This document shows, piece after piece, positions 1,501 to 60,936 of a stretch of DNA of 64,000 nt. Every line of letters begins with the position of its first letter. Positions within the stretch are counted from its first letter, which is position 1. Source of the DNA: Wickerhamiella versatilis (Eukaryota). Where the stretch lies: the NCBI GenBank assembly GCA_030867685.1, contig JAQOWU010000008.1:3844001-3908000 (forward strand), written 5' to 3'. The notes below the pieces were generated by a model. It was not told where the DNA came from. It ran no database searches and saw only the letters and a program-made list of their open reading frames with translations. Made by a program: the position numbers and the translations under genes.

Positions 1501-1739
1501 CAACTTGCACTTGAAATTGGTTAGTCAGATCAACTGGTGGTGGTGGGTCCAAATGGAACAGAAACAGAACAGGTTACGAATATGCACTTGGTTTGATAAA
1601 AATTTCTAGGAACTCACAATGCTTCTCATTGAACACTGTGCACGATAGAATTACCAGCCAAATCATCAACATTTCTTACCGTTTGTCCTGCTCCAAACAG
1701 AGGTACACGCTGCTTACGCTACCAACCAACGCATAGGGA

Positions 1740-2261
1740 ATGCTGGTCGATCTCCATCCCCGGCGACTCCGGAGACAGCTGTCTACACTCCTCAACATGA
1801 TGATGGTGCTAGCTGGTGCCTTCATGGCCTATAAAACGCTAGGGGTTATCGCAAACACGGGTACGCCTGCAGTGGTGGTGCTGAGTGGCAGCATGGAGCC
1901 TGCCTTTCAGCGGGGTGATATCCTGTTGTTATGGAATCGTGAGAACCACGTGAATGTAGGGGATGTGGTGGTCTATGAGACGAATCGTCGCAGTATACCA
2001 ATTGTCCATCGGGTGGTCCATGATCACGAGAGCTCCCGGAAGCAGCTTGTTTTAACCAAGGGAGATAACAACCCAACTAACGACCTGGATCTTTACGGTT
2101 ACCGACAAAATTATCTCGACAGAACTAAGGATATTGAGGGCGGGGTTGTAAAGTTCTATATTCCTAAACTGGGGTATGCCACCATAGTGATGACAGAGAA
2201 TCCTAAAATCAAGACAGTGTTTCTTGCGCTTGCCGTGCTATTTGCAGGCCTTACTGAGTAG
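1740..2261 (+). CDS. SEC11: Signal peptidase complex catalytic subunit
   Basis: VVVLSGSMEPAFQRGDIL, PIVHRV and TKGDNN motifs of S26B peptidases. Confidence 0.95.
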   Translation: MLVDLHPRRLRRQLSTLLNMMMVLAGAFMAYKTLGVIANTGTPAVVVLSGSMEPAFQRGDILLLWNRENHVNVGDVVVYETNRRSIPIVHRVVHDHESSRKQLVLTKGDNNPTNDLDLYGYRQNYLDRTKDIEGGVVKFYIPKLGYATIVMTENPKIKTVFLALAVLFAGLTE

Positions 2262-2298
2262 GTATAAAAAATTAGCATCCATTTTATTTTTTATGAAT

Positions 2299-2811
2299 TT
2301 AGCTGTCGAAGGGCAACAAATAAGATTCGGCGACATGTCGAGCACGGGCGTTTACGAACAGCTTGATCTCGGAGATCTCTTTATCGACTTCTTGCATAAA
2401 TTCCACAATGAAGTCAACCAGCTTATGCTTCAACATGGTCTCAACGTGAACATTCGTGACGAGGAAACTGATGTCGTACCCGGGCACTGGCACTCTGCGT
2501 AGGATATAGAAACTTTCGGCTCGTCTGGTGAGGAAACGGGTGAATTGAGTAACGAGTATCGTCTCCAGCTCATCAGCCTGCTTGATCTTGATGGAAATAC
2601 GAACGCTGTTGATGCTGGGCTCTATAAGCACGCTCTCATTCTCGTTACGAGCAATGTGCATCGTGTTCAACAGAGCCATGGGATTCGTCTGAGCCTCTAC
2701 CTCAGGATAGTTGAGCCGTTCGACTATCTCACTGCCGAAATTCTCCAAGCACAATGCTGAAGTTAGCGAGGTCCTCACAGCATTAAGATATGGTCTGAGC
2801 GTCTGCGACAT
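2299..2811 (-). CDS. ARC19: Arp2/3 complex 20 kDa subunit (ARPC4)
   Basis: [13 protein letters not shown]..., [39 protein letters not shown]. Confidence 0.96.
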
Positions 2812-2932
2812 CGATGGCTGCTGCTTCTGCTTACTCAGAATATCTTGGTGCCTAAAGATTGTTTGGCGTGAGCTTAGCCAACGACTCGCTGACTATCGTT
2901 TGCCCAAAGGCAGTTGAAAGGTACAGTATGAA

Positions 2933-4219
2933 ATGTGGCAGGCAGCAACAGATAAGCATGGTCGTCAATATTTCTATAATAAGTATACTCGAGTAACTAC
3001 CTGGGAAAAGCCCAAGGAGTTATGGACACCGCAGGAACTACAGCTGCACAGATTGGGCTGGCAAAGATACACAACTAAGGATGGCAGACCGTACTGGTAT
3101 AATGGCCAATTGAAAAAAAGTGTATGGAATCCGTTAGAAATTTCTGAAGGTACTTCGACAGAAACAAATGAAGATAATTTGGATGGTTCGCCTGCGAAGC
3201 GGGCGAAAATCGTCGACAACTCAGATACTTCAGATTTATACTCAGCCTTTGATCAGGCATGTGTCATTGGAAAAAACTATAGAGATGCACTGCCTTCCCT
3301 CATCCACATCGAACAGTTTAGGTGTTTGGAAAATATGACAGAACGGGTCAAGGCTTTCGAAGACTATCAAAGAATAAGGGGTATTCGGAACTCTTCAATT
3401 GAGAGTGAGAAAAACTTTAGTGATGCTTTTGTTGAGCTTGAAAAGTTTAAGACTGCGAAGTCTTTTTCGGAGATAGAACCATATTTAGCGACGTCAATAC
3501 TTTCTTCGAGGGATAAAAAGAAAGCATTTGAGGTTTTTGCGGAAGCGGGAAGCATCATAAGCCACAAATATGCACCTGAAATATATGAGAATGAGAAAGG
3601 ACGAATGGAACACGACCTCTCCACTCAATTGTCGCAGCAATCTGTGAGTAACGTTGACGTCGAACAACTCATGCTAATACTGAAAAGTTCCGACAACTTT
3701 AGCATTGAAGAAAATGACAAAATAGAAATCTGTAAGGCCTCCATCGAGAAATATTGTGAGAAAGTCAATCAGTGGTTGTTAACCCAAGCAAACCGCGAAG
3801 ATCGCGAGGACCGCCATGCCCGAGAAAATTTCATACTTTACCTTAGTAAATTACCGAAATCAGATCTTATTAGCTGGTCGAAAATTGTCGAAAAGAGAGA
3901 TAAACCATTAAAAGAGATGTGTGGAAGAATTGGATCGGGTGCTAACGAATTATATGCAGAGTACGTTAGCCGTTGCAGATCACTGTTAAAAGATTCGGTT
4001 AAAAATGCCAGGGAATTAATGGCGAGGCATGACTACACGATCGAGAAAATTTCAGAAAATAAACTCAGGGACTTTTTAGTGCATGAATCAGATATTGAAG
4101 ACGTGGACACTGTACTTGATGTAATATTCCGCAGACCACCATTCGATAAAGAAGCAACTGATGGCGGTATCCTAGATATTCCTCAAAAAAACGGTAAAAT
4201 GGATATTTTGCCATACTGA
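2933..4219 (+). CDS. PRP40: WW/FF-domain pre-mRNA processing factor, Prp40-like (diverged, shortened)
   Basis: Two tandem N-terminal WW domains (WQ..TDKHGRQYFYN...TTWEKP; WQRYTTKDGRPYWYN...SVW) followed by FF-like helical segments. Confidence 0.7.
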   Translation: MWQAATDKHGRQYFYNKYTRVTTWEKPKELWTPQELQLHRLGWQRYTTKDGRPYWYNGQLKKSVWNPLEISEGTSTETNEDNLDGSPAKRAKIVDNSDTSDLYSAFDQACVIGKNYRDALPSLIHIEQFRCLENMTERVKAFEDYQRIRGIRNSSIESEKNFSDAFVELEKFKTAKSFSEIEPYLATSILSSRDKKKAFEVFAEAGSIISHKYAPEIYENEKGRMEHDLSTQLSQQSVSNVDVEQLMLILKSSDNFSIEENDKIEICKASIEKYCEKVNQWLLTQANREDREDRHARENFILYLSKLPKSDLISWSKIVEKRDKPLKEMCGRIGSGANELYAEYVSRCRSLLKDSVKNARELMARHDYTIEKISENKLRDFLVHESDIEDVDTVLDVIFRRPPFDKEATDGGILDIPQKNGKMDILPY

Positions 4220-4477
4220 ACGACTTGGATTGTTGTCGATATTACCCTAATATCTGTATTAGATATTCCATATCGTACCTAGATAATATAACTTTAGTGA
4301 TTGGCATATTTGCTCTGTGATAGATATAATATTAAAAGGCCCATGATATGAAGTTGCATTGGGTGACTGTGCTACAATCGGATTCTTACGGGTTAAAGCT
4401 GGAGGATCTTTTACAATTTCGGTCGTGTGCTTGATTTGTCACCACAACGCATTCAGAATAGCCGACTTGTGAGCCGT

Positions 4478-6361
4478 ATGCAAGAGGCAGAGGATGACCC
4501 GCTAGCATTGGCATTGGCCAATGAGTTTGCATTTGTGGATGATTCATTCTCTAACATTACAGATCAGACACCAAGTGCTGCACCCGGTGCCACAGGTGAG
4601 AACACATCACCAGATACACAAATGGCTGTATCGCCAACTTCATCCCAGTTATCTACCACTCAGGAAGCTAGAAATGCGCAAAATTCCCAGGCGTTGCAAA
4701 ATCGCGGTGTTGAGATATTGCGATCCACGGAACTTCACAATCGGGCTTGTGATGAATGCCGCAGAAGGAAAGCAGCCTGTTATTACCTGAAAGGTGATGA
4801 TTCGAAGTGTTTTAGGTGTCAGATGGAGGATGTGGAATGTACTTTTAGCGCGCACTCTCAACGCAAGTCGAACCCACAATCTAAATCCTTACCTTTGCAA
4901 CACAAACAGGTGCTAGGTGCCGGCCCTGTAGAGGATTATAGTGCTCTTCCTGGGCGAAGTCTTTTGAAGAAAACATTATCTTTGCAACACCCACGATCAT
5001 CTTTTGCGATTGGCAGATTCAGCTTGTGGGACAGGCAAATACTGAGCGGTATTCCTCTAGACCGAAGCGGACAGGCCCGCATAGCGTCAAACCTTACTTT
5101 GCGCAGAATATACGATGACACTTATTTTCTGGTCAAGAATGAAGGGTGTCAATCTGAATGGATAAAAGAGAGTGACTCAATTGAACAAGCTGTTGCCCCA
5201 CATGGCCGCGCTTTGGTAAATGCTTATTTTCACTTCTGTCAGCCATCTTATCCATTATTACAGGAAAAAGTATTCCTTGAAAAGTATACTCGTACCTATA
5301 GAGAATTGACTCCGGCTCTTTTGGGTGCAGTCTACCTCTCAGCTTTGAAGTTTTGGTACCAAAGTTCTGAGCTTCGAACAGCTGCACGTCCCCCTGAGCT
5401 AGGGCCTCAACTTCAAAAACTAGCCTTACGTTCCTTCTTTAGGAACTCTGGAAGTGTCTCACTCTCATTGATTCAGGCCGGTCTCTTATTGATAGAGGCG
5501 ACTGTCGGCGATCCTCGTCACGTTAGCATTATTTCCGTTGTGAAGGCCATTGGTTACCGTTTAGCATTGCATCGCGACTGTACAAAATGGGAGTTGCCAC
5601 TTTGGGAAATCAACTTGAGATTAAGATTGAGTTGGAGTGTGGTATCTCAGGCATCTTGGTTAGCTTTGTTTGAGAGTTTGCCAGGGCTAGTTGAGAACTC
5701 TTGGGACCTTGTTCCGCTGGGTATAGATAATTTCGAGACAGCTGGAATGGCTACTCCAGACATATCGCTATTTACTACTGTGATGAAACTTAGCCTGTTG
5801 GTTCGCGATATTCATGTGTTTCTGCTGTGCGACGAAGACACGAAGTCAACCTCGATGGAACATATTTTGGCCCGGGTTAAACCAATCCAAATAAACTTAC
5901 GCCAATGGTATCATGATCTTCCTACCGCACTGAATTCTAAGGAGAAGTACTTCTCCCTCCACATATTGTACCTAGCGGCAGAGGCTTCAATTCACCGCTA
6001 TATTATACGCAGTCTCGCTGATTTTCAGCGTACTGCTCCCCAAGATATGGAAATGGTGGAGGTTTGTCGGTCCTCAGCACGTGATCGATTAGAGGCGGCC
6101 GCTAATTTATTGCAAGATTTGAAGCCAGAGTATTTTTGGACCAACTGGTCCGTAGTAAGTGCTCCTGGTATCGCATCTCTTGGAGTTTTGGCCGCATTAA
6201 TGTATATGACAAGCTCTTCGGCAGCTGAAGCAGAATTTTTCAAGGGCTATCTTACTACATATGTTGACAAGATCAGCACCTTCAGCGAGCACGAAATTAT
6301 GGCCGCTGCTCTTTCCATAATACACTCATCTCTAGCTGGAGTGCCTGGTATTAATATATAA
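4478..6361 (+). CDS. DAL81: Zn(II)2Cys6 transcription factor, Dal81/TamA-like
   Basis: CDECRRRKAAC...CFRC......C zinc cluster; SLLKKTLSLQHPRSS segment resembling Dal81/TamA; fungal TF middle-homology region. First ATG at 4478. Confidence 0.75.
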   Translation: MQEAEDDPLALALANEFAFVDDSFSNITDQTPSAAPGATGENTSPDTQMAVSPTSSQLSTTQEARNAQNSQALQNRGVEILRSTELHNRACDECRRRKAACYYLKGDDSKCFRCQMEDVECTFSAHSQRKSNPQSKSLPLQHKQVLGAGPVEDYSALPGRSLLKKTLSLQHPRSSFAIGRFSLWDRQILSGIPLDRSGQARIASNLTLRRIYDDTYFLVKNEGCQSEWIKESDSIEQAVAPHGRALVNAYFHFCQPSYPLLQEKVFLEKYTRTYRELTPALLGAVYLSALKFWYQSSELRTAARPPELGPQLQKLALRSFFRNSGSVSLSLIQAGLLLIEATVGDPRHVSIISVVKAIGYRLALHRDCTKWELPLWEINLRLRLSWSVVSQASWLALFESLPGLVENSWDLVPLGIDNFETAGMATPDISLFTTVMKLSLLVRDIHVFLLCDEDTKSTSMEHILARVKPIQINLRQWYHDLPTALNSKEKYFSLHILYLAAEASIHRYIIRSLADFQRTAPQDMEMVEVCRSSARDRLEAAANLLQDLKPEYFWTNWSVVSAPGIASLGVLAALMYMTSSSAAEAEFFKGYLTTYVDKISTFSEHEIMAAALSIIHSSLAGVPGINI

Positions 6362-6372
6362 ATTAAGACATT

Positions 6373-6729
6373 TTACAAAAACTTTGATTTTTCACCTGAT
6401 TTAGCAGGCTCTTGGCTAGACTTCGAGGTTGTCTCAGACGACGCCTTCCAGAGATCATTATTTGACTCAATCTGGGATAATATGTCATTTAGCGAGTCAT
6501 CCTTTGGTTTGTTGGAGCTCAGTTCGGCGTTGATATCTATTTTTTCGCCTGACCGTATGCGGCCCATGAGCAGATGTGAGAAATCAATTTCTGTTCTCGT
6601 CCTACGGTCGAAGCTCTCTCTCTCATTTCGAGTACGAATCAGCCAGAGTATTTCTGAGGTCATTACACCCGCCAATACCATGACTAGCACATTGTCTTTG
6701 GCACCCAACCGGTGAAGAAAGCCGGCCAT
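6373..6729 (-). CDS. Small single-TM fungal protein, DUF5321-like
   Basis: Hydrophobic segment, then a coiled region and the RIRSGEKIDI...L..ILSQIE pattern I recall from DUF5321; fills the gap between two genes. Confidence 0.6.
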   Translation of the reverse strand: MAGFLHRLGAKDNVLVMVLAGVMTSEILWLIRTRNERESFDRRTRTEIDFSHLLMGRIRSGEKIDINAELSSNKPKDDSLNDILSQIESNNDLWKASSETTSKSSQEPAKSGEKSKFL

Positions 6730-6808
6730 GACAATCTGTTAGTCACCAACCTCCAGGCGGGGGACCATCCTTTAGACTTAGAGAATTGTCTCTTCATTAT
6801 GAAAAACC

Positions 6809-7600
6809 TCAAAAAAGTAAGAAATGTCCATCTATATCAGAATCGCTGCTTTTTTCTTCGTTATCATGAGATCGCGATTGCGATCTAAGTTCACGTTGAC
6901 GAGCTAAACCTGCATTGCGTTTTCGCCTGGCCCGCTCGTTCTTCGTCTCGGATTCTTGCTCTGTGTGTCTAACTCTGAATTGTTTGACTTTCTCCGTCAG
7001 AGCAGCTATTTTAGCGGCATTTTTCTTGAATAACTCAAGGGCAAGCTTATCGAGCTCCACAAGATATTGAGGGCTGGTTATAATGTGGATTTTATCCTGT
7101 TCGAGCCACCCAATTGGTGCATCTATGCGCATCGAAATGCGAATAGCCACATTGTCATTAGGCCCAATGCCAGTTTCACGGAATCCCGTTCCTAAGGCAA
7201 GAGATGCTAGATTCCGAGCTGTTTCATGATTTCTACACTTCACATGGAGAATGAATGGTTCAAATTTGTATAGAACATATCTTCGTGGCTCTTCAGGATT
7301 CACTGGCTCGGGGTGTCTGTACTCAGATAATCCCTGGGCCCATCCTTGAAGCTCCTGGGGATCATGGGTGAAGAAAAGCCAGGTTCCACCATCTCCTTTC
7401 CCCCCTACTCGACTTTTATGGCCCTCAATAAAGATACTAACCCTGCCTGCGCATGATGAGGTGGTGACCAAGTCAGGATTTTCGTTCACGAGATTAATCA
7501 AGGGAACTATTTCTTTATCAACTGAGCCCTTAGGGGAGTAATCTACAACACCTAGGCTGGCCAGGATATCAGCTTTTTGACGGGTAAAGCTGTCTCCCAT
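6809..7600 (-). CDS. TYW3: tRNA wybutosine-synthesis methyltransferase
   Basis: DYSPKGSVD, TTSSCAGRVSIF, YKFEPFILHV, GFRETG motifs. Confidence 0.92.
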   Translation of the reverse strand: MGDSFTRQKADILASLGVVDYSPKGSVDKEIVPLINLVNENPDLVTTSSCAGRVSIFIEGHKSRVGGKGDGGTWLFFTHDPQELQGWAQGLSEYRHPEPVNPEEPRRYVLYKFEPFILHVKCRNHETARNLASLALGTGFRETGIGPNDNVAIRISMRIDAPIGWLEQDKIHIITSPQYLVELDKLALELFKKNAAKIAALTEKVKQFRVRHTEQESETKNERARRKRNAGLARQRELRSQSRSHDNEEKSSDSDIDGHFLLF

Positions 7601-7653
7601 ACTCTGCTGCCGGTCGCTTATTTAATCGTCACTTTCGCTACCTTCATCTGGTG

Positions 7654-8250
7654 ATGGATACAGTGATTTCCTCACTTGAGGAAGGGCTTAATGGGCTCGT
7701 TGAGAGCATATCCCGGTACGAGGATGTGCATTCCCAAGTTCATAAGATCGTGAAATTGGATCGTGCGTTTGTTACGGAGGTGGAACATTTGAAAAACCAG
7801 TACGAGGCCACAAGACGTATAGAGGCACTCCAGGACGAGAGTAGTGTCCTCGACAATGAAATCAATAACACATTGTTGCAGCTTTCTGACTGCCGTAAAG
7901 AATTAGAGATTGTGCCAAAGCTGCCCGATTCACAGCAGGCTAAGCCTGTGAATGCGGAGGCGCTGCTCGATTACGCCATAAAAATCACGAAATTTACTCG
8001 GCGTATGCCAGGGATGGAGTCGCTGGTTCCTTGGCCAACAGAAGATAATTTAAGACAGGGGATGCTGGCTGCCCTGGCAATTCAAGACCCTGAGGCCATG
8101 CAAATAGACGCGGAACAGGATTCGACACAAAATGCTAAAATCGATACAGAGGAACATTCCCATCAACACGCACACCCAGGAGCTGCACCTCGACGCGGAG
8201 CTACGAAGCCGCGAAAGATTAGCCTTGACTTTGACTCGGACGAGGAATAA
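7654..8250 (+). CDS. MED4: Mediator complex subunit 4
   Basis: Coiled-coil N-terminus; LLDYAIKITKFT and PWPTEDNLRQGML motifs; acidic tail. Confidence 0.88.
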   Translation: MDTVISSLEEGLNGLVESISRYEDVHSQVHKIVKLDRAFVTEVEHLKNQYEATRRIEALQDESSVLDNEINNTLLQLSDCRKELEIVPKLPDSQQAKPVNAEALLDYAIKITKFTRRMPGMESLVPWPTEDNLRQGMLAALAIQDPEAMQIDAEQDSTQNAKIDTEEHSHQHAHPGAAPRRGATKPRKISLDFDSDEE

Positions 8251-8397
8251 AGGTACTTTATTTTTTACTCTTATGGTGGACAATGCAGGACTTCTATTTC
8301 AGAATTTAATTATTGTTCATTGTCTATTGCCACTGTGAGACTTGATGCATTTAATGCCAAATATCGGAATATGATGTTATCACTCGTGTTTGTAATC

Positions 8398-8700
8398 ATG
8401 TCTTTGGCGGAAGCTGTTTCGAGTTTAGCCACCGAATTCGAGAACCTGAAACTAAACACGTCTGGTTCAATTCAGCAAATCGCTGAAAGATTGGTCACGC
8501 AAGGAGAGGATGATACGAAAGAGGCAGAAAGCACTATATTGGCTGAGGGGGCCAGAGAGTGTGACCGACTCAAGGAGATATTGAATAGTTGCCAGGATTT
8601 AGACAGACAGGTCGATCAACTAGAACAACTCGCACAAATATCTTCAGAACTCTGTCGAATCGTGTCAGGAATAGCCAAAGATTCTTTGTCGCGTCGATAA
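8398..8700 (+). CDS. Small coiled-coil protein (~100 aa), possibly a BLOC-1-type subunit
   Basis: ATG at 8398; heptad-rich sequence (LDRQVDQLEQLAQISSEL); fills the MED4-CTR9 gap. Family assignment is tentative. Confidence 0.5.
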   Translation: MSLAEAVSSLATEFENLKLNTSGSIQQIAERLVTQGEDDTKEAESTILAEGARECDRLKEILNSCQDLDRQVDQLEQLAQISSELCRIVSGIAKDSLSRR

Positions 8701-8855
8701 AAAATGCATAATTCACGAAAGAAAAGACTCAAACCACATTAGTTTAGCATTAATCTAATTTAAAACCCTGCAACAGGAAAAAAAATCATTACTCTCAATT
8801 GTTCTGGTCAGCTATCTATATATTCAGTATTGGAGTTGATGCTGTCTTTGTCAGC

Positions 8856-11786
8856 ATGAGCATACTCGAGGTTCCTCTGGAAACGGATGGGGAGGTCCTG
8901 ACTATAGACCTGGACCAAGACCTACCAGATGATCCTAGCGAGATTTGTGTGCTACTAGAAAATGAAAGGTGTGCACCGAAATTTTGGCTGGCATTCGGTA
9001 GCGCCTATTCGCGGCGTGAACAGCCAGAGAACGCTCTCGAGGTTATTCAAAGAGGCTTGGGCGCACCAGTGGTTAATGACGATCCAAATTCCCTCGCTAA
9101 TTTGCAGGCATTTTTGTGCTGGCTTTATCTCAAGCGCATGAGACAATTACCAGTGGCTGAAAAAATCGATGAGTATGGCCGTGCAGTGGATGCTTGTAGT
9201 AAGGCTCTTCAGCAAAATCCTCGCTGCGTTAATGCTTCTCTCGCTCGCGGAGCCATTTCTCTTAGTTCAGGTCAATTTGATGATGCTCTTCAGCCGTTTC
9301 AGTCTGTCCTTGCCGCGACAGGTGATGAGGAAGTCTATGCGAAGGTTGGCAGAGCTCGGGCTCTCTATGCACACAAAAATTATAGAGGTGCTCTGAACTG
9401 GTACCAAAAGGCTTTAAGAGAGGCACCAAATATCAAACCCGATGTAAGACCGGGTATTGGCCTATGCTACTGGCACCTTGGGGATAAGACACGAGCTGCA
9501 ATGGCTTGGGAGCGATCCTTGAGCCTGGGTAACAACGAAGCTGCTCATGCTTTGATGGGAATCTACTTCCTTGACCTGGCATTCCATGCTTATGAGAGTC
9601 AGGTGGATTTTAAATTGACCTATAAGGAGGCTATCCTTCATTTTGAGGAGTCATATCGGCTAAAGCCCAATGGAAGCGGTGCGCTGGGTTTGGCGAGCTT
9701 TTTGTTTTCACGTCATGAAATGCCAAAAGTAAGAATATTGGCTGAGGGTGTTCTCAAATACGCGACATTGCCCCAACTTCAGGCCCAAGCACACTTTTGG
9801 TTAGCACGCGCAGCCCACTATGACGGCGACCTTCAGACCGCGCACAAGAGCTATAGCCAGGCAGTATCACTGGATTCCCATAATGTACCTGCTGCTTTGG
9901 CAAAAGGAATGGTGGAAATATCACTGGACAATGACGCCGAAGCTCTACTCACATTAGAGCAATTGGCACATGCACATCCTCATGATGCAGATGCAGCATT
10001 CTATGCTGGCGTAGTGAATGCTATTCAAGGTCACACCACAGAAGCGGTTTCTAATCTCGAACGATATCTGGCTATTGTGCGTTCTTCGAAGGCCGAAAAA
10101 GATCTTAACCCAGATGCCCTTCTCTGGCTGGCTAGGTTGACGGAGGATGAACCTACCAAGGCCCTAGAGTATATTCGTGATGCCATCAAAAATCAGTCAA
10201 GTTCGTCGAGTGTACTACATTGCAATCATGGTGTTTTAGCTTATTTGTGCAACGAGTATGAAGAAAGCATTAATGCCTTCCAGATAGCTCAAGATGCAGA
10301 TGAAACCAAGCAGTACGCTCCAACCATTGAGTTCAACCTCGCTCGTCTTAATGATGCAACTGGAAAAACTACCGAGGCTTTGCAAGCTTACAAAAAGATT
10401 CTTGAAGAGTATCCGAACTACAGTGAGGCCAAATTGCGTTCACTTTTCTTACATTACCAAGAAGGTGAAAATGTGAATGAAGAGGTTCTTAAACTGGTGG
10501 AGCATGACGCGCGAAACGCAGATGCACGTGCTCTGCAGAGCTGGCTCTTGCACAATGTTTCTGGCGAGGCGGAACAGAAGTCTTTAAAACACACGCTTGT
10601 GGATGTTGATAAGCATGATACTTACGCGCTGGTAGCTATGGGAAATCTCTATTTGAAGGCTGCACGTGATGTACGTATTTCCAAGGATTCTGATGCTGAA
10701 AAGCGCGATAAGTCAAACATGCGAGCTGCAGAATTTTTCGAAAAGGCACTGCAAATTGATCCATTTTGTGCTTATGCCGCCCAAGGTATTGCTATTTTAT
10801 TCGCTGAAACTAAGCGGGGTGACCAAGCTCTAGAGCTTTTCAGACGTGTGCGTGAAACGCTTGATTCGGATCCAGGTGTATTTGTGAATGCTGGACATTG
10901 TTGTATGGAAGTAAAGCAGTACGCAGCTGCAGCTGAGCATTACGAGCAGGCTTTGTTGAGGTCCAGAAGCCCAGATGCAGGACTTTATTCCTTACTTGGC
11001 CGTAGCTGGTTCGCTCGGGGTTCTCAGGCAAAAGACATTGCTGCTCTAATGAAGGCACTTGAGTTTAGCAAGCGCTCACTTGAGTTGCACCCCAAAAATT
11101 CTAGTCTTCGCTTCAATGTGGCCTTTGTTCAATTTCACGTAGCTGATGTGATTCGTCGGTTACCTTCTGAACAGCGTACATCTTCGCAGATTTCGGAAGC
11201 CCGAGAGGGTCTTAATATGGCCATTGAAACGCTCAAGTCGCTCGCTGATGAGCCAAAGCCACCTTTCCCTGCCGAGGACTTGAGGACCCGAGCGTCCATT
11301 GCCGAAGAATCCGTTATGGAGCATCTTGACAGCGCTGCTTATGAGCAGGCAGAATTTGAAAGGGCTTCTGAGGAACGTTTGGAGTTGGCTAGGCAAGCTC
11401 GTGAGAAAGAACTTGCTTCTCACGAGGAGAAGGCGAAGCGATCGCGTGAATTAAGCGAAGAAAAAGAAAAGGAACTGGCAAAGGAGCGTAAGCGACTGTA
11501 TGAGGAAGCACAGCAGTGGGAGGCAGAACGTGCTGCGGAGGCCGAGGCAGACTCAAATGAACCCGAGAAAAAGCGAGCCCGGAAGACCCGTAAAGACGAT
11601 GATTTCATCGCAGATTCTCCTCAACCTTCTCCGCCAAGCTCTCCATCAGAGCCGTCAAAATCCCCTGTTGGTGATAGTCATGCCGAGCCTAGTGAAGAGC
11701 CACCAGAGGAAAAAGTGCGGGAGAAACGACGAAATGTCATCGATGACGATGATGACGATGACGACGAAGTCGATGATCTCTTCTAG
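8856..11786 (+). CDS. CTR9: Paf1 complex TPR subunit
   Basis: N-terminal LPDDPSEICVLLENE motif, long TPR array, YAAQGIAILFAE, FNVAFVQF, charged C-terminal tail. First ATG at 8856. Confidence 0.93.
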   Translation: MSILEVPLETDGEVLTIDLDQDLPDDPSEICVLLENERCAPKFWLAFGSAYSRREQPENALEVIQRGLGAPVVNDDPNSLANLQAFLCWLYLKRMRQLPVAEKIDEYGRAVDACSKALQQNPRCVNASLARGAISLSSGQFDDALQPFQSVLAATGDEEVYAKVGRARALYAHKNYRGALNWYQKALREAPNIKPDVRPGIGLCYWHLGDKTRAAMAWERSLSLGNNEAAHALMGIYFLDLAFHAYESQVDFKLTYKEAILHFEESYRLKPNGSGALGLASFLFSRHEMPKVRILAEGVLKYATLPQLQAQAHFWLARAAHYDGDLQTAHKSYSQAVSLDSHNVPAALAKGMVEISLDNDAEALLTLEQLAHAHPHDADAAFYAGVVNAIQGHTTEAVSNLERYLAIVRSSKAEKDLNPDALLWLARLTEDEPTKALEYIRDAIKNQSSSSSVLHCNHGVLAYLCNEYEESINAFQIAQDADETKQYAPTIEFNLARLNDATGKTTEALQAYKKILEEYPNYSEAKLRSLFLHYQEGENVNEEVLKLVEHDARNADARALQSWLLHNVSGEAEQKSLKHTLVDVDKHDTYALVAMGNLYLKAARDVRISKDSDAEKRDKSNMRAAEFFEKALQIDPFCAYAAQGIAILFAETKRGDQALELFRRVRETLDSDPGVFVNAGHCCMEVKQYAAAAEHYEQALLRSRSPDAGLYSLLGRSWFARGSQAKDIAALMKALEFSKRSLELHPKNSSLRFNVAFVQFHVADVIRRLPSEQRTSSQISEAREGLNMAIETLKSLADEPKPPFPAEDLRTRASIAEESVMEHLDSAAYEQAEFERASEERLELARQAREKELASHEEKAKRSRELSEEKEKELAKERKRLYEEAQQWEAERAAEAEADSNEPEKKRARKTRKDDDFIADSPQPSPPSSPSEPSKSPVGDSHAEPSEEPPEEKVREKRRNVIDDDDDDDDEVDDLF

Positions 11787-11853
11787 ATACATGTATTTTT
11801 TAATATTCTAATTAAGAGGATGCTATGTTTTTCTTTATTAGGTCGAAGGAAAA

Positions 11854-12372
11854 CTAATTAGGATACAAGTTTCCACGACAGGGCTTGGGAGGATCACCTG
11901 TGAGAGGCTCATGCTCAACTGTACCTACCTCCCAGTATTTTACGTTGTTGGAAAAGAATCTTATCCAGCCTCTAATCATTTCATGCTCTTCCTCAGAAAG
12001 GCCTCTAAGATCGTGGGTGAGATCGGAAGCGAAGCAGCCAGTTGCAAATGCTCTAGCCGCGTCCCGACCACTGAAGAAGCGATATGCTCCTAACGGCCCA
12101 TATACATCTGGTCGTGCACTCACATCAAATACACTTCCATTGATAGCAAGATATATGGGTAGTGCTGGGTCGCTACCATCATATTTAGAAAGCTCTTCCT
12201 CACGAAAAATCTGTGGACTATCAAAAAGACGGAATTGGATATAATGAGTATTTGTCCACCGAGTCTCATATCCCCAAAGCCAGTTCCCGGTCACGTAGTA
12301 GCTCAGAGCAAAAAAAACCACAACAAAGCTCAGGAACGTTTGCCATGGAGACAGCTCGGTGCGTTGGGACAT
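11854..12372 (-). CDS. Membrane-anchored cytochrome b5-like heme/steroid-binding protein (MAPR family)
   Basis: N-terminal TM; EELSKYDGSDP..PIYLAINGSVFDVS, YGPLGAYRFFSGRDAARAF.TG. Confidence 0.88.
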   Translation of the reverse strand: MSQRTELSPWQTFLSFVVVFFALSYYVTGNWLWGYETRWTNTHYIQFRLFDSPQIFREEELSKYDGSDPALPIYLAINGSVFDVSARPDVYGPLGAYRFFSGRDAARAFATGCFASDLTHDLRGLSEEEHEMIRGWIRFFSNNVKYWEVGTVEHEPLTGDPPKPCRGNLYPN

Positions 12373-12524
12373 TATGATCTGTCTTTCTAGCTCTTATAAT
12401 TGTAACGGGTAACAACCAGTCACTAGTTTATTGGCGTCACAGCGACAAATTAATAAGCTCTGGTGATTCAGGCTCAAGCTGGAATAAGACGATGATGTAA
12501 GTGTTACCCCGCTTTTTGACAGAG

Positions 12525-13601
12525 ATGTTAATTGAAAAAGCATTCACTTACCCTGCATCTTGGCCTCGGTCCACGAAAGACTCACTACTTTACTCAGATG
12601 CTCGCCTCGATGTTGCATATTCAATATGGCATGACAGTGATCACTTACCTGAAGAGCCACGCCATACGAAGATGAATATCGTATTTTTGCATGGCTCACA
12701 ATTTGTGAGGCAAATTTGGAATTACATGGTAGAACTTGCGTTTAAAGAGTTTGGGTCAGACATTGACAAATGTATAACTATAGATGCTGTCACCCATGGA
12801 GATTCTGCATTGCTTAATGCAGAGAAAGTAAATTATTTTGCCGCTTGGGATGATCTAGGACGAGATGCTGGTGAAATCATTAAGCATCTGCGTGAAACTG
12901 GGGAAATTGAGGGCCCTGTAGTGATCTATGGTCATTCGATGGGAGGTTCTTCGGCACTCGTCCTAGCTGGACTCCATCCGGCTTTGGTTCAAGGAGTTGT
13001 CGTGATGGATCCAGTTTGGGGAGGAACTGAGGGACAATTTGACAATATTGAAATTCCTACTAAACTGGCGAGTGCTGTCTATCGTAATGCTCGTGAAACG
13101 TTTAAATCGCATGAAGATTATTTGCACTTCATGAACCGAATGTTTATATCCTCTAAATTCCATCCACGAATTAAAAAGGATATGACTGCTCATTTGGGAG
13201 TGCAGACCTCGGATGGTGTATGGCGGATGAAACAGAGTCGAGCCCTCCAGGCTGGTGCGTATTACTCCGTGAGAAGCGTGGCTCATTTTGGCAATACATT
13301 ATTCCGGAATGTGCGTCAGCCTTCGTTAATTATTCATGGCGATATCGAAGACTGGAATCCGAAAGGAAGTAACGAATTGCTTGAAACTGTTCTACCTCAT
13401 GCCGAGCGCGTTGTTATGACTGGTGGTGGCCATCTAATAATGTTTCAAAAACCTGAAGAGTGCTTTTCGATGTCGATTCCTTTCCTGAGGCGTACTCTTC
13501 AGCAAGCACAGAAAACATCTGGAACTGGTTACCTGAGTCCTTCTACAAATAAAAACTTCGAGTCAATGGTTCAAATCAACAGCCAAGGCTCAAAGCTTTA
13601 A
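12525..13601 (+). CDS. Peroxisomal alpha/beta hydrolase, Lpx1-like
   Basis: FLHG, D...HGDSA, nucleophile GHSMGG, catalytic His in GGHL, C-terminal PTS1 -SKL. First ATG at 12525. Confidence 0.85.
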   Translation: MLIEKAFTYPASWPRSTKDSLLYSDARLDVAYSIWHDSDHLPEEPRHTKMNIVFLHGSQFVRQIWNYMVELAFKEFGSDIDKCITIDAVTHGDSALLNAEKVNYFAAWDDLGRDAGEIIKHLRETGEIEGPVVIYGHSMGGSSALVLAGLHPALVQGVVVMDPVWGGTEGQFDNIEIPTKLASAVYRNARETFKSHEDYLHFMNRMFISSKFHPRIKKDMTAHLGVQTSDGVWRMKQSRALQAGAYYSVRSVAHFGNTLFRNVRQPSLIIHGDIEDWNPKGSNELLETVLPHAERVVMTGGGHLIMFQKPEECFSMSIPFLRRTLQQAQKTSGTGYLSPSTNKNFESMVQINSQGSKL

Positions 13602-13723
13602 TCCGTTGGACGTACTGAAAGTAGGTTGTTCGCATGGAGACAAGTGTCCCTTTTTTATGACCATAGAATAAAGCTTTTCCGACATAGTATCTCTATCACT
13701 GTCAACCTAATTATGTACATTTT

Positions 13724-14878: not shown

Positions 14879-14966
14879 TTTCTGCTGAGTAACGATTCGT
14901 ACTGGCTGTTCACCCCATTGAAGGACCGTGGCGAACTAAAGGTTCTGAGAACTTGCTAGTGTAAGG

Positions 14967-15581
14967 ATGCAAAAGGCAGATTTTAAAAGTATTGTCATTG
15001 ATCCATATATTGTCGAGGAATTTCTTGGTAGTAAAGATAGTGAAAGTCATCGGTTTAAATCTCGGGCACCTATTGAATTACCCTCACTAAATCCAGAGGG
15101 ACCTGTTGAGCAGGTAGAGGACCCAGATGCAGTAACATTAGATTTTGCGAGGGAGTGGGTCAAGAAGGGGGCGAGCGTCAACCCAGTTCGATCAGAGGGG
15201 TGCGAGACGTATGAGGATGAAGCAGTTCTTGATACAATTCCCGAAACTCCAGATACAAATGTGCATGCGCTAAGAAATGCAGATATTAAATTGGGTGATA
15301 CTCATTTTGTAGCAGTTGTGGAAGACACGGAACCAGAAATCTGCCTGTTTTGTCTCGCGGACCGCACAGCTCTTTGTCCATATTGTGATGTGGGAGATAA
15401 CGAGGCTGAGGAGGTGCATAAGTGTGTAGTAGAGTTTTCTGAATGTGGTCATGGTGTTCATAAACACTGTATGGATAATTGGCGGTCACAAGGAACCTGC
15501 CCATTGTGCAAACAAAAGTGGAGCACTAAGAGTTATTCGCATTGCCTTTATGACCCCAGCACATTAGAAGTGCAGTATTGA
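14967..15581 (+). CDS. RING-H2 protein, Apc11/Rbx1-like C-terminal domain with an acidic N-terminal extension
   Basis: CLFC.......CPYC...C.......CGHGVHKHCMDNW.....CPLCKQKW. Confidence 0.75.
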   Translation: MQKADFKSIVIDPYIVEEFLGSKDSESHRFKSRAPIELPSLNPEGPVEQVEDPDAVTLDFAREWVKKGASVNPVRSEGCETYEDEAVLDTIPETPDTNVHALRNADIKLGDTHFVAVVEDTEPEICLFCLADRTALCPYCDVGDNEAEEVHKCVVEFSECGHGVHKHCMDNWRSQGTCPLCKQKWSTKSYSHCLYDPSTLEVQY

Positions 15582-15731
15582 AAAAAAAACGTTTTAATGG
15601 TTCTCTAAGTTATATATTTCTATGCAAAAATTCTATTCACGCGAAATTGTTGTGAAATACAGGCGACCTGTAGTGAGTAAGCTAAGCTGGCTGGCTGTCA
15701 AAGAGAAATCGGAAGAGCTGTAGGGAATGCG

Positions 15732-16952: not shown

Positions 16953-17288
16953 TAATATAATTGTTTTGGCAAAGGAATTGAGATTGGAATTGGAAAGTAA
17001 AGCCTACGTGCTCGCTTACTCGAATGTACATAATGAAAGCTCTTAATCTAAGCACTTAAGGCGTAGCCGCAAACAGACAATAAAAGAGAGATAAGGGTAT
17101 CGCACCATTCACAAAATCTGCTCAAATTTTCGATTTGTTTTTTATTTTTGTTTTGCTAAAACAGCAGCATACTGTGTGAATCAGTGCACTTACCCTGTAT
17201 TTTAATAAGCCTGGCTATTCCTGCAATATTATATTACTAATCGGTTTATTTACTTTTTGAGCGCGCACCACACCATCCACACACTGGC

Positions 17289-27310: not shown

Positions 27311-27448
27311 TTATATTGGTGGTTGGTCCCACATTTCCCAATGAAGTGTGTTAGTCATCACTATGCAGCTGGACTGCATAGTGGTAATGCCAGCCACTCT
27401 TTGAATATATAACACAGCCTCATGACGGGTTCAGCCACAATATAGCTG

Positions 27449-30378: not shown

Positions 30379-30453
30379 TAATGCGGGAAGGTTAAGCTGA
30401 CTCAGGTAAACTTCCTCTTTTTCTTATTTAGAGAATACTTAGGCTAAATAAAA

Positions 30454-36074: not shown

Positions 36075-36078
<4 letters not shown>

Positions 36079-37466: not shown

Positions 37467-37467
37467 G

Positions 37468-41320: not shown

Positions 41321-42071
41321 TGTCAGAAATCGGGCTTAGTCAACAGTCTACTCACGCGAGAAACGACATTGCAAAGTTCACGATACCTCCCAACCCTCCT
41401 GCGCTCCAGTAACAAAGCAAAATAAGGTTTGAGGAGTATGAATTAGATAAAGTTGCTGCCAATGTGATACGTGTATTAATTTTGCTTGAATCTAAAATAC
41501 TTCAATCGATTCGGATAGTGTAACCTTCGCCACATCTGTGGCTTAGGACCTAGCCCTACCATCAGGGACGCTATATGCGAGTGAACTAGGGGTTCAAAAC
41601 GAGAAAATTCTTACCCAATGTGGTTATGCTTATGGTATCATATCGGGTCTCAAGAAATCTAGGGCGGTTAAAAACGTGGGTCTGGGGTAATTAAATTGTT
41701 CTGCCTGTCGTAGTAGCCACGAGCAACCATCTTTCCATTACTCGCATATTAAGAGACACCACGGGTTAGGTCTATCGCAAGCTATCTCTAACTATTTTGC
41801 TATAATCCAATCTAATCACCTTTTTTTATGAATCTGGGGTGATTTTTGACGGTGGTGACCGTCTTTGGCTACTTTCCTGGCCAAGCTTTACCTATATTTC
41901 AGACAAACATTGCCCAGTAATGGAATTGTCCAGTAATGGGATAGCAAAAGTAACGCGGCGCTCAGCGGGTGTGTATTAATGCTCTCCTGGGGTTTATCGC
42001 CAATTGATATTGTATAAGCCCGAGACCACTGTTTAGTATGCTCTATTGACATCACTGTAGCATGACCTAAA

Positions 42072-44316: not shown

Positions 44317-44549
44317 GGTCTAATAATTATTAATGGAATATGGTAACGCGATGTTACCTATCCTTTAAATGCCACCCCCCTTCACTTTCTTAGGCACTGT
44401 GCTAACACCGATTGCTAAGTATGTACGCACGTGGAGCATTGAGCTTCTGCTAATGTCCATGTGACCTGCCATCGACGACTTTGGGTGAGGGCTTTGAGGA
44501 CCCGAGGAAGCATGATTAAGAGTAGCCTTGGCTCAGTCATCAGCGTTCA

Positions 44550-46525: not shown

Positions 46526-46690
46526 GAATTTTCGAAAACATACAGAGCCGTTCGGCAAGATTCGTCTAGAGTAATCTAGAAAACATTACCAATTTTGTTT
46601 CGAATTCTACCAATTTCCATCTGACTAATATAGCCGCAATTCCATCTTGTTCTACTACTTCCACGCTTAGACCGGTGGGAGGGTATATAA
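46526..46690 (+). promoter_or_regulatory. HSP70 promoter: HSE-like GAA/TTC units and a TATA box
   Basis: GAATTTTC 46526-46533, further degenerate TTC/GAA units to about 46610, TATATAA 46684-46690. Confidence 0.5.
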
Positions 46691-46734
46691 GCTCGGGGGT
46701 CCCACCACCTCATGACTATCAATAAAAAATAATA

Positions 46735-50546: not shown

Positions 50547-51273
50547 GTTGCATGAGTAAGCACTGGTGTGGATCAGATATCGAGATCGTCCTGTACGCGA
50601 TGAGACTGTATGATGAATGATCCTTGCGTTGGAGTCAGTTTACTTTTATTTTTCTCTTTGGTTCGGATTCTTTAATACCTAGACCTGTCTGTATATAATA
50701 CTAAATTAATGGTCAGATGGAAGGGAGTACCCAGATGCAATTCTAGCTGGTATGACGCCAAATTAAACCTTATAAAAAAAATAAAAAAGGTCTCCGGTTA
50801 TTTATGCCGGAATCCACCAGAAAAGTAAAATAACCCGAATAGATAGGGTATACTGGACAGGAAACAACATACGACATAGAGATATAGTGAACACAAGAGT
50901 GGATGCTTCATTAAGAATGGACATAGTGTTCAGACAGAATATATACCAAAACATCGCAACGACTTTACCAATTCATGAAAAAACCGCGGTACGATGGAAT
51001 GATGGTGCTGAAACAGAATCTAAAAACAGCCACTGGTCGGATGAATTAGGCAAAGGGGAGGAGCACCATACTCCATGGCCAAGAGCTCACCAGAAACACA
51101 TTATACATATCCCACTAATTGTATCTACCTAAGGACTGTAAAAATAGCCAGAATATGGGCTGGTTCGAGGATATTGTGCTCCTAAATTACTCGAGCCTGG
51201 GCTAGGGCATGGTTGTCATCACCCACCTCAGCTGGGTGTCCGTTACACATCACCTGAGTGTTGCCACAAGGAT

Positions 51274-53768: not shown

Positions 53769-53828
53769 GATATTGTAAGAAATAGTTTTTTGTTGATAAA
53801 TGTTATATTAGTTTACTAAATAAGCGTG

Positions 53829-55565: not shown

Positions 55566-56241
55566 CAATATGACACGGGCCTCAGACCACGTAGGATGAG
55601 TAAGGCTGAGTGCAGACTCGAAGGAACAGAGGCAGTGGTGCCTTTTTTTCTCTCAAAAGCCTTTATTACGAGATGAGTGATTCTTTTTTATCTTGGAAAA
55701 TACACAGACAAGTACATAGATAAATATAAATATATATATATTTCTAGATGTATGAATATCCGAGAAATTGCTTACATGTATAACGCGATGTGATGACAAA
55801 ACAGAATTAAGCGAGCGTGTCCTAATGACATAGTTGAGCACTAAAGAAAAGGCCAACTTGAATGTCTTTCGCTAAATTAAAAGCGAAATATGTTGGATCA
55901 GCGCCTGGTTCCTTGGTAATTGATTTGTTTAATTTATGATTCTGCCGAAAATATTTTTCCATTTTTTAATTGGTATCTCTGATAGTATGCCTTGTTCAAG
56001 CCGATCTAAATACAAACCGAGTCCAAAAATCGTGCTCTTAAGCTAGAATTTGTCTTAATTAGAAGAATGTGGCGTTTCATGTATAGCTTCCTAGATACAG
56101 TGTTTTCCACCGCTCACCCACGGCGGACCACCAGGAGTCTATCTATAGCTCCTTACTCCGCATATCGTGCATCTCTTTAAAGACAGTTTGTCTGTGCCTA
56201 CATGAGGCACGTGACATAATATTTGTCACGTCTCCGGCAGG

Positions 56242-59200: not shown

Positions 59201-59520
59201 ATTTGAATGGGAATGCAATAATGAAAGAAAAGACTGATACGGAGGCTGAAGCACATGTTTTGGCGGCAGAACATGCACCAGCTAACGCCGAGCCATTCTC
59301 TGACCCACATATAGGGCCGTTCAAAATAGATCTAGAACAGCTGAATTCCCTATTTGATCAAGTTATGACTGAATGCAGAGATTTCAGCCTTGGTCAACTG
59401 GAGTTGATTTATTCAGGGCTTGTTGACGTCGCGTGGCAGTACCGAAATGATCGTGACCGGACGGCGATGCTTTCAGAGCTACAGAAACGAGTTCAATTAA
59501 TACACTACCTTGATAATTAG
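56242..59520 (+). CDS. YTA7: Chromatin AAA+ ATPase with a bromodomain-like region (ATAD2)
   Basis: GPPGTGKTLMARALA, FFMRKGADCLSKW.GEAERQLRLLFEEA, second degenerate AAA domain, FYNMDLD.IE.RLWNGYY. Confidence 0.94.
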   Translation: MAPSKRRRVTVNSDDSSGEEKEEYPITLKYDANANVKKEASDDEYRESEFEDENEDEGSTEGYSEEASDGGFIVDSDGNDVRGSYDRPARRRRSSRATRSAPPRTRRLTRRQAALRRAHGIPSESGHEGDTDSVAEEFRDLHDTPSPSPPPRELRARRPVSYAMPPPPTLEEVEAAAASISARHDSKSKNKGPLRRLFNVRGPFGGADVVSLFNPSENELRKVLDEGSKSVISTSQSAATTADSDPLGIETDIDFSAVGGLDDYIDKLKEMVQLPLMYPNIYKRFAITPPRGVLFHGPPGTGKTLMARALASSCSKDSGKKVTFFMRKGADCLSKWIGEAERQLRLLFEEAKAHQPSIIFFDEIDGLAPVRSSKQEQIHASIVSTLLALMDGMDNRGQVVVIGATNRPDSVDPALRRPGRFDREFYFPLPNLQARRRIIEIHTTKWDPPLPGNFLDKVASLTKGYGGADIRALCTESALIAIQRAFPQIYATRQRLLVDPSQIKVEPADFMAAIDRIQPSSMRENEGEGPRPLPDRIEPLLRDTFSKIKEQLDSVLPRAPIRSSLEQAIDSEGISFEVQQRYKELQASRVYRPRLLVHGPPDHGQEYLAAAIANYLEGVNIQYLSLPSLLGDTMKTPEATIVQVVAEARRRTPSCILIPDIDAWTDAVSPQVFSVLVASLRSCTPSEPVLVVGISNTELEELNPAIVKIFGLTTVKATIDTSKSVLSEFFALLRELITKEPPRITQSRQKIPELPLAPEEPVDASSAYEDPEEQRRKDIKTRSQLKVKLGSLLDGFKNRYRRFRKPAVDDMHIAYLFETEGNEGGEAAEEQEDHEYVRTGDDMILEVSTEKKFYNMDLDIIEDRLWNGYYCEPSQFLKDIEMIHADSVVMGDRDRMHKSSELLANTEVALDDINEPEFLQACRDLHIRSARRLLQEVGKVKDIDGSSTQGNSQVDPQGNPEESSQGGMQGQVSAKDVENQREEGSHHLNGNAIMKEKTDTEAEAHVLAAEHAPANAEPFSDPHIGPFKIDLEQLNSLFDQVMTECRDFSLGQLELIYSGLVDVAWQYRNDRDRTAMLSELQKRVQLIHYLDN

Positions 59521-59556
59521 TATAGCAAATACCTATATCTATATTCGCAATGTAAC

Positions 59557-60936
59557 TTAGAGTTTTTCAAGTATTTTGGCGACTTCAAGTACCAGCTCAT
59601 CGTCGCCGTATTGACCCCAAACCTGAATTCCAACCGAGAAATCCATAGGCACTGTAATTGCCGGTAATCCCGCGATGTTTGCGGGCATTGTCAAAACGTC
59701 ATCTATGTAATGCTCAACGGGATCCGCGTCAGTACTTTTATCTAAGTTCGGAGGTAGCTGAGGTGAGGCTGGAACCACAATGACATCGATATCTCCGGGT
59801 ACAGTGGCCGGATCATGTAAAAGCGAATGCTGGGTTCCAAATACGCTGTTAAATTCGTTGATAATTAATCTCCTCACTTTTTGGGCCTTTAGGAAATGTT
59901 CATCATAAGCCTCAGCAGTCATGTTGAATGTACCCAATAAGATCCGACGCTGCACTTCTTTACCAAAGCCTTCAGTTCGGGTAGGTCCATATAGGACATT
60001 GTCTTTAGAATTTTGATCTTTTGACGCCCGAGTACCGAAACGAATTCCATCATATCTGGCCAAATTTGAAGAAGCTTCAGCAGAGGAGAGTGCAAAATAA
60101 GTTGGAAGTGCGAACTTAACGCCAGGGATACTTACGAGCTCGAGTTCATGACCCTGGTCAACAAGACCTTCAAGAGCTCTTTTCCATGCTTCTCGAACAC
60201 GGGGATGCATGTCTATTATAGTTTCTTCAACAATCCCAACTTTTAATTGCTTTTTAAGAGGCCCCTTGATCCATGCCTTTCGAAGCCAGCTCGGTGCACA
60301 GGTAGGGTCCTTCTCATCAGGCTTATCAAGTATTTGAAATGTTTTTTCCAGCTTACCGAGATCACGGCTTAATATTCCGACAGTATCAAGACTCTGTGCA
60401 AAGCTAACAAGCCCATAGCGAGATATTCTACCGTAAGAGGGTTTGAAGCCGAAAACAGAGCAGTACGCAGCAGGTAGTCGCACACTTCCACCAGTATCTG
60501 AACCAAGACTAACGTCACAGAATCCAGCTGCTACAGAGGCTGCGCTACCACCTGATGAGCCACCGGGGCTCGTCGGGTGGTCATAGAGAGGATTCAAACA
60601 TCGACCATGACAGCTATAACTGTTATCAATTCCCATAGCAAACTCATCCATATTTGCTTTACCGAGAATAGTTCCACCACTTTCACGAAGTAAATCAGCT
60701 ACAGTGGAATCATATGGACTCATGAATCCCTTAAGGATCTGAGAAGCGCACGTCGTAGGTTGGTCCTTTGTACAAAAATTGTCTTTAAGAACATAACATA
60801 ACGATTCAGACGAATTAGAGCTCAGCACAAGCTCGCTTTCCTTTTTCACGGATACCAAAGCATTTATTTTCGGATTAACCTTAGCGATCCTCGCAAGGAA
60901 TTCTTTGGCTTTTCCACTCATCCGTTGACTCATCAT
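59557..60936 (-). CDS. HER2: Mitochondrial glutamyl-tRNA(Gln) amidotransferase subunit A (GatA)
   Basis: KDNF, GKANMDEFAMG, GGSSGGSAA, GSDTGGSVRLPA, EASSNLARYDGIRFG. Start uncertain (in-frame ATGs at 60972, 60936, 60933, 60921). Confidence 0.92.
   Translation of the reverse strand: MMSQRMSGKAKEFLARIAKVNPKINALVSVKKESELVLSSNSSESLCYVLKDNFCTKDQPTTCASQILKGFMSPYDSTVADLLRESGGTILGKANMDEFAMGIDNSYSCHGRCLNPLYDHPTSPGGSSGGSAASVAAGFCDVSLGSDTGGSVRLPAAYCSVFGFKPSYGRISRYGLVSFAQSLDTVGILSRDLGKLEKTFQILDKPDEKDPTCAPSWLRKAWIKGPLKKQLKVGIVEETIIDMHPRVREAWKRALEGLVDQGHELELVSIPGVKFALPTYFALSSAEASSNLARYDGIRFGTRASKDQNSKDNVLYGPTRTEGFGKEVQRRILLGTFNMTAEAYDEHFLKAQKVRRLIINEFNSVFGTQHSLLHDPATVPGDIDVIVVPASPQLPPNLDKSTDADPVEHYIDDVLTMPANIAGLPAITVPMDFSVGIQVWGQYGDDELVLEVAKILEKL

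Follow-up and report, generated by a model that had tools for sequence, protein, structure and literature searches.

A palindromic AP-1-like heptamer marks transcription starts in the compact genome of the yeast Wickerhamiella versatilis

The way in which the start site is fixed on yeast promoters without a TATA box is described as open in the text of one comparative study (PMC7849388), and a 64,000-nucleotide stretch of Wickerhamiella versatilis DNA (contig JAQOWU010000008.1, positions 3,844,001 to 3,908,000, assembly GCA_030867685.1; hereafter 'the window') raises the question of whether a short palindrome contributes to it. An initial annotation had drawn attention to the AP-1-like heptamer TKASTMA (that is, T[TG]A[CG]T[AC]A, which equals its own reverse complement) just ahead of many unrelated start codons, and had proposed a general element near the transcription starts of housekeeping genes. 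The motif is real, occurs genome-wide in this yeast, is tied to transcription starts and is not a splice signal. All 12 exact copies in that annotation were recovered with correct coordinates and distances to the ATG (Table 1), as were its one-mismatch copies ahead of TFG1 (44533) and a protease gene (near 38930). Across the whole window the heptamer is not above chance (28 copies vs 31.6 ± 5.9 in shuffles), but it lies 0–59 nt before the ATG in 11 of 46 window genes called by a codon-model open reading frame (ORF) caller, compared with 1 of 46 in the zone 100–159 nt upstream. The excess of 11 start-proximal copies therefore holds, and the signal is one of position, with coding DNA depleted.

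The W. versatilis genome comprises 9.88 Mb in eight contigs, with median spacers of 385 nt between divergent and 279 nt between tandem genes. As a held-out sample we took 95 spaced 10-kb pieces (950 kb); 637 genes were called, including the 46 of the window, and 504 outside the window were kept, each with a closed 5' end, 300 nt of upstream sequence and at least 100 codons. The heptamer lies within 59 nt of the start in 110 of these 504 genes, whereas 200 dinucleotide shuffles of their upstream sequences gave 22.1 ± 4.8 (maximum 40), which bears out the genome-wide enrichment around ATGs that the initial annotation had put forward as a check. Its position peaks 10–19 nt before the ATG, while TATAWA peaks 30–49 nt before, and the five heptamers most enriched in the proximal 67 nt relative to other non-coding DNA include all four reverse-complement pairs. 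Within spacers of up to 400 nt, heptamer density is 2.5 per kb where genes diverge and 2.1 per kb in tandem, but 0.18 per kb where they converge (69, 141 and 125 spacers, respectively). Because the occupancy value from expectation-maximisation was unreliable on its own (a control region scored higher, at a third of the likelihood), we used a cross-validated matrix trained on one half of the sample and tested on the other; this gave an excess in 15–19% of genes at 8 bits, 26–33% at 6 bits and 37–44% at 4 bits. A count of TKASTMA-N4-30-ATG over the whole genome (3786 vs 3579 for the reversed control) was uninformative because most ATGs are not starts.

Several simpler sources of this pattern were rejected. 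The motif contains stop triplets and might have been selected by the ORF caller, yet it shows no frame bias (44/41/39), and the same crude caller gives 102 proximal copies in 468 starts in this genome and 2 in 262 in 80 fungal metagenome loci. A terminator or general intergenic word does not fit the three copies found in 125 convergent spacers, nor does a by-product of divergent promoters, since tandem (53/232) and divergent (66/287) genes carry the heptamer equally often. The metagenome loci surround relatives of ARC19 that are 55–75% identical, and many of them have introns, which spoil ATG calls; the 10 gene-dense loci among the 80 gave one copy in 67 starts. The suggestion that the element is lineage-specific thus stands as far as distant fungi go (2/262 ORF starts), these being the fungi that the comparison covers. 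As to relatives, the best matches of Pri2 among 8000 candidates scored were, with a genus name, proteins of Trichomonascus (43%) and Magnusiomyces (42%) and, beyond these, an 88% identical protein from a sister species. The yeast thus falls with the early-branching budding yeasts, in the neighbourhood of Yarrowia, and its small genome with few introns would suit the Wickerhamiella/Starmerella group.

All eight variants of the heptamer are in use, and the members of each reverse-complement pair are balanced (22/21, 19/13, 10/9 and 10/9 among 113 held-out proximal copies). Flanking positions extend the motif to T-K-A-S-T-M-A-K-C, and this tail is biased towards the sense strand (TKASTMAKC 51 vs 22 in reverse, p=0.0009, with controls at 1 and 2; TMAKC 324 vs 186), so that, judged by the directional consensus of an Initiator, the tail is oriented while the core is symmetric. 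Forms with 8-bp spacing of the half-sites are also enriched (TKACGTMA 16 vs 2.2; TKACATMA/TKATGTMA 33 vs 6.5; TKAGCTMA 9 vs 1.6), but 6- and 9-bp spacings are not (64 vs 63 and 51 vs 55).

The same dyad is avoided inside genes. In 730 kb of coding DNA the heptamer occurs 116 times against 280 ± 14 in synonymous shuffles (a ratio of 0.41) and 249 under a frame-specific order-3 Markov model. By the shuffle measure TTASTAA falls to 0.16 and TKACGTMA to 0.30, while controls give 0.73, 1.07 and 1.11, and the half-sites STMAKC/GMTKAS stand at 0.88 vs 0.41 for the full dyad. Depletion is alike on both strands; TTACTCA is an exception (33 vs 42). Among 8192 heptamer pairs ranked by coding depletion, TTASTAA comes second and TGACTAA/TTAGTCA fourth. 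The first place belongs to TGCTGAC/GTCAGCA (0.46 per strand in the 95 pieces plus the window), presumably a Maf-like extended half-site; no Maf-type bZIP exceeded the Pfam cut-off in the genome.

Four RNA runs carrying the same species label were aligned to window positions 1–18000, where they match at 95–100%. In two of them 5' ends are marked by an adaptor on the read ends, which we take to be a template-switch adaptor; 14 of 128 loose-end rows were examined, and 12 of these were adaptor rows, from six genes. In all three genes examined that carry an exact motif (UBP6, ARC19 and the DUF5321 gene) a 5' end coincides with the heptamer's base 6, T[A]A, and in the Zn-cluster gene the end falls on base 7 of a more degenerate match, TTTGTC[A]CC, to which a matrix derived from genes outside the window assigns 8.9 bits. 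All four genes with a match of at least 6 bits, a small sample, thus start at base 6 or 7, at a pyrimidine–purine (YR) step enclosed by the motif. Relative to a random choice among YR steps, the three base-6 hits have p of about 0.0008, or 0.02 if any YR step of the motif counts, for a register defined after the data were seen and a small number of genes. Mis-annealing of the adaptor was rejected because no G lies just upstream of any base-6 or base-7 end. The DUF5321 gene has ends supported by 35, 46 and 45 adaptor reads, the row at 6748 being taken as 6744. At SEC11 one end lies within a GCTT[A]C half-site and the main end, 1724, lies outside any good match. Leaders in the mapped genes are 11–37 nt long, and six of eight mapped ends fit the fission-yeast consensus PyPyPu(+1)N(A/C)(A/C). 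OXA1, KIP3 and the gene at 15732 had no adaptor row among the 14 of 128 rows examined; for the last of these, random-primed reads pile up at 15697/15703, 18–24 nt behind base 6 of its copy, and the corresponding offset of 12–25 nt in UBP6 and ARC19 makes this indirectly consistent with a start at base 6. Separately, at window position 5882 all reads of both adaptor-bearing runs have T where the window has C and the other two runs have no T, a strain difference.

Motif genes have ordinary codon bias (0.527 vs 0.530, p=0.54). Among the 40 most codon-biased genes the heptamer occurs in 4 (p=0.07) and a TATA box in 16 (p=2e-6); highly codon-biased genes use TATA boxes instead. An Initiator that accompanies a TATA box lies at a fixed distance of 25–30 nt behind it; here motif and TATA box occur together in only 9 of 552 genes, too few for their spacing to tell, and these have no spacing peak.

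Taken together, the enrichment in the sample, the restriction to promoters and the mapped 5' ends inside the motif uphold the proposal of a general element at the starts of housekeeping genes. Of the two roles originally offered for it, one overlapping the initiator is favoured for the 7-bp form, and one as an upstream nucleosome-displacing element is disfavoured. The explanation we prefer, with a probability of roughly 0.55, is that genes without a TATA box may have taken over a Yap/AP-1-type bZIP site as their start-site (core promoter) element. The dyad, both half-site spacings (7 and 8 bp) and the extended half-sites would point to a bZIP dimer and, with the avoidance on both coding strands, are typical of a bZIP site. 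Here we infer protein binding, the bZIP nature of the protein, its need for initiation and its displacement: a constitutive Yap-type dimer would bind T-K-A-S-T-M-A, or its 8-bp variant, a short way ahead of the start codon, where it would hold the DNA open and recruit the pre-initiation complex; the polymerase would start at T[A]A or TC[A], the YR step of the downstream half-site, with the factor leaving as the DNA melts and a general initiator preference supplying the directional tail. The setting would be a genome whose spacers measure a few hundred bases and whose leaders run to 10–40 nt. Doubtful, and offered tentatively, is the larger claim that a bZIP dimer has turned into a general initiator-binding factor which directs initiation at a large proportion of TATA-less genes and replaces upstream architecture, so that promoters shrink to a few dozen bases and one 7-bp site even serves two divergent genes.

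A number of observations weigh against the reuse of a bZIP site. A symmetric dimer by itself has no need of a sense-biased tail, and any dimer that occupies +1 has to clear the site before transcription can begin. Another factor may be responsible for the 8-bp forms, which are found further upstream (median gap 33 vs 20, p=0.02). The motif tolerates other bases at its centre, TKAWTMA being enriched twofold (71 vs 34) and standing at 0.73 in coding DNA. The motif and the TATA box are only weakly exclusive (p=0.08). Mapped ends come from six genes, two of which start outside a good 7-bp match. The genome has seven bZIP_1 hits over the cut-off among 12 and one more by bZIP_2, with one Yap1/Pap1-like gene (PAP1 domain) and one HapX-like gene; their presence singles out no factor, and bZIP binding is suggested by the form of the site.

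Among the alternatives, a long, lineage-elaborated Initiator could be read directly by the basal machinery (TFIID, or TBP, TFIIB and Pol II), the AP-1 look being coincidental and the palindrome reflecting starts on both strands. This would account for 5' ends inside the motif, for the sense-biased tail and for the agreement of six of eight ends with the initiator described for fission yeast (PMC8871863); TAF1 is present in the genome, and Yarrowia, the nearest yeast with cap analysis of gene expression (CAGE) data, is described as using fixed-distance initiation (PMC7849388). It leaves unexplained why 8-bp spacing is enriched without 6 or 9 bp, why both orientations are equally used in tandem genes and why coding DNA avoids the full dyad much more strongly than its half-sites, and we regard it as unlikely, if still a reading to be taken seriously. 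A site for a general regulatory factor (like those of Reb1, Abf1 or Cbf1) or for a repressive bZIP, marking where the open region lies or where the first nucleosome begins, has the dyad and the coding depletion in its favour; starts would then fall inside it merely through tiny promoters and TA/CA steps. The copies at 27351 and 46622, in the usual place upstream of TATA boxes, and the two of six mapped genes that start outside a good match speak for this, but the same base (6 or 7) is hit among 11–18 available YR steps in every gene with a match of at least 6 bits, and we judge such a site decidedly improbable.

Still further down the scale, a conventional Yap1/Gcn4 stress regulon squeezed against the ATG has in its favour that the core equals the Yap1/Cap1 consensus MTKASTMA (PMC3111461) and that a Pap1-domain gene exists. 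However, the genes marked in the window are housekeeping ones, unrelated to each other and without a common redox function, the 22% (exact) to about 40% (degenerate) of genes concerned far exceed a regulon, transcripts start inside the site under the conditions of all four runs, and the copies show no preference for the M with which the Yap1 consensus begins (A 34, C 28, G 36, T 15 of 113), all of which makes it very improbable. Least credible, and already largely refuted, is the idea that the copies are splice signals of leader introns or arise from calling the first ATG after a stop. Nine of 113 held-out proximal copies do have a splice-like context (two a branch site with a donor, seven with GTRAGT), and the copy before the DUF5321 gene resembles a branch site plus AG, yet that copy is unspliced, no intron joint was found in window 1–18000 across 16 consecutive called genes in four RNA runs (one 3-read back-joint only), variants unlike splice signals are equally used, and both the absence of frame bias and the contrast with other fungi tell against a calling artefact. 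With no introns in 18 kb, splicing is excluded for most copies, in agreement with the view taken in the initial annotation.

Known systems resemble the element in part. Yap response elements (YREs) are described as YRE-O, TTASTAA or MTKASTMA, for Yap1 and Cap1, and YRE-A, TTACGTAA, for Pap1, Cgap1 and Yap3/4/6 (PMC3111461). The core heptamer, the 7- and 8-bp half-site spacings and use in either orientation are common to both: the element is a 7- or 8-bp (pseudo)palindrome beginning TTA or TGA with a C/G centre, if not a strict one, and its core is independent of orientation, the flanking tail alone being sense-biased. YREs are known there from stress regulons searched for in -800 to -1, whereas the element here is found on a fifth to two fifths of genes, housekeeping ones in the window, no more than about 50 nt ahead of the ATG, where it covers the mapped start. 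Because it marks no stress or redox regulon among the window genes and lacks an upstream position (110/504 genes), we do not file it as an ordinary YRE. Initiators of metazoa, of fission yeast (nmt1/DHFR type; PMC8871863) and of oomycetes (INR+FPR; PMC3599244) are likewise described as enclosing +1, starting at YR and being mostly TATA-less; these are short and directional, and the present element is built on a 7-bp palindrome, of which an 8-bp variant also exists, and is avoided on both coding strands. The Trichomonas vaginalis Initiator bound by IBP39 (PMC8871863) would be alike, if the bZIP explanation holds, in placing a sequence-specific protein on a TATA-less start site; IBP39 is described as unique to Trichomonas, whereas the candidate here would be an ordinary bZIP. 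The CCC/GGG-like signal of the microsporidian Encephalitozoon cuniculi (PMC2803860) is reported from a similarly compact genome, with very short leaders and a start-predicting motif right before the codon, but is unrelated in sequence and lineage and has three bases vs the 7–11-bp dyad here. Sites of the yeast general regulatory factors Reb1, Abf1 and Tod6 are also frequent on TATA-less promoters, at the position of the TATA box upstream of the start and not, as here, on the start (PMC7849388). In the sections compared, that study names no such motif for Yarrowia with its fixed-distance initiation, and Aspergillus nidulans is described as starting mostly at CA, with CACGTG, ACCGCC and CCTNAGG enriched (PMC4046813). 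In the open-access literature compared, no Yap/AP-1-type start-site element is described for this yeast group; figure S14 in the supplement to PMC7849388, which gives the motifs of each species and covers Yarrowia, lay outside the comparison and may bear on novelty.

A long, countable element containing +1 is, in a yeast, a direct handle on start choice at TATA-less promoters, and start codons and start sites in this genome can be predicted from the motif. Should its reader be a bZIP, a family of stress regulators would have been recruited to the core promoter, which would be one way for promoters to become extremely compact. Minimal or two-way promoters are suggested for the biotechnologically used yeast group to which this species appears to belong.

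Table 1. Heptamer copies, variant forms and mapped RNA 5' ends in the window (flanking tails are joined by +).
Position	Strand	Feature	Context
1521..1527	-	heptamer TGACTAA (sense)	20 nt before UBP6 ATG; mapped 5' end 1522 = base 6 (34 adaptor-ended reads)
1711..1724	+	SEC11 start region, half-site GCTTAC	5' ends 1716, 1721, 1724; best match only 1.5 bits
2831..2837	-	heptamer TGAGTAA+GC	19 nt before ARC19 ATG; mapped 5' end 2832 = base 6 (25 reads)
4435..4443	+	degenerate copy TTTGTCA+CC	before Zn-cluster gene (ATG 4478); 5' end 4441 = base 7 (30 reads)
6739..6745	-	heptamer TGACTAA	9 nt before DUF5321 gene; 5' ends 6740 (base 6), 6743-6744 (bases 2-3)
12491..12506	+	8-bp form TGATGTAA	few nt upstream of mapped 5' end 12506 (gene at 12525); end not within a 7-bp copy
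14886..14892	-	heptamer TTACTCA+GC	7 nt before OXA1 ATG
15674..15680	+	heptamer TGAGTAA+GC	51 nt before ATG 15732
17234..17240	+	heptamer TTACTAA+TC	48 nt before KIP3-like kinesin ATG
27351..27357	+	heptamer TTAGTCA+TC	91 nt before ATG 27449; upstream of TATA box, ordinary upstream position
30398..30404	-	heptamer TGAGTCA+GC	19 nt before ATG 30378
41336..41342	-	heptamer TGACTAA+GC	15 nt before SAK1-like kinase ATG
44533..44539	+	one-mismatch copy TCAGTCA+TC	10 nt before TFG1 ATG
50553..50559	-	heptamer GC+TTACTCA	6 nt before GT31/Fringe-like ATG
55597..55603	-	heptamer TTACTCA+TC	31 nt before SRP101 ATG
60926..60932	.	single heptamer between two divergent start codons	dynamitin ATG 60939, gap 6; HER2-like amidase inferred ATG 60921, gap 4

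Pfam backs the gene labels UBP6, ARC19, DUF5321, OXA1, kinesin, kinase, Fringe/GT31, SRP101, amidase and dynamitin used in the initial annotation, while its 'PPR-like' and 'SWIM' genes have no Pfam match at E<=0.001. The HER2-like amidase and dynamitin start codons probably lie only 17 nt apart, with one heptamer between them. The gap of 4 nt for HER2 assumes a start at Met18 of a long ORF, the amidase domain beginning at residue 23; the longer frame (ATG 60972) would overlap dynamitin, and an out-of-frame ATG lies 4 nt ahead of the dynamitin ATG.

Elsewhere in the window, the TATA-containing genes for an HSP70 and a cell-wall-like protein (46622-46735 and 27351-27449) have the heptamer upstream of the TATA box and not at the start. 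The 8-bp forms TTACATAA, TTACATCA and TGACATAA occur ahead of MIG1/CreA-like, SRP102-like and YTA7-like genes (19635-19642, upstream of 19710; upstream of 43815; and upstream of 56242), the first adjoining a TATA-like stretch. Immediately before the ATG of a CTR9-like gene lies TTTGTCAGC (8847-8858), where a random-primed pile-up at 8865 would fit a leader of about 3 nt. ARC19 is without the post-ATG intron that many fungal relatives appear to have. Five coding-like ORFs, at 15732-16952, 29944-30378, 39472-39765, 44011-44316 and 8371-8700, match nothing in Pfam at E<=0.001, and PRI2 is flanked by two genes of lower GC content (34625-36040 and 37691-38908) which from their sequence features appear to encode secreted aspartic proteases. 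Two hexamer pairs, CCGGGA/TCCCGG and CTCATC/GATGAG, the latter presumably PAC-like, are also modestly enriched in the 67 nt that precede the start codons of called genes.

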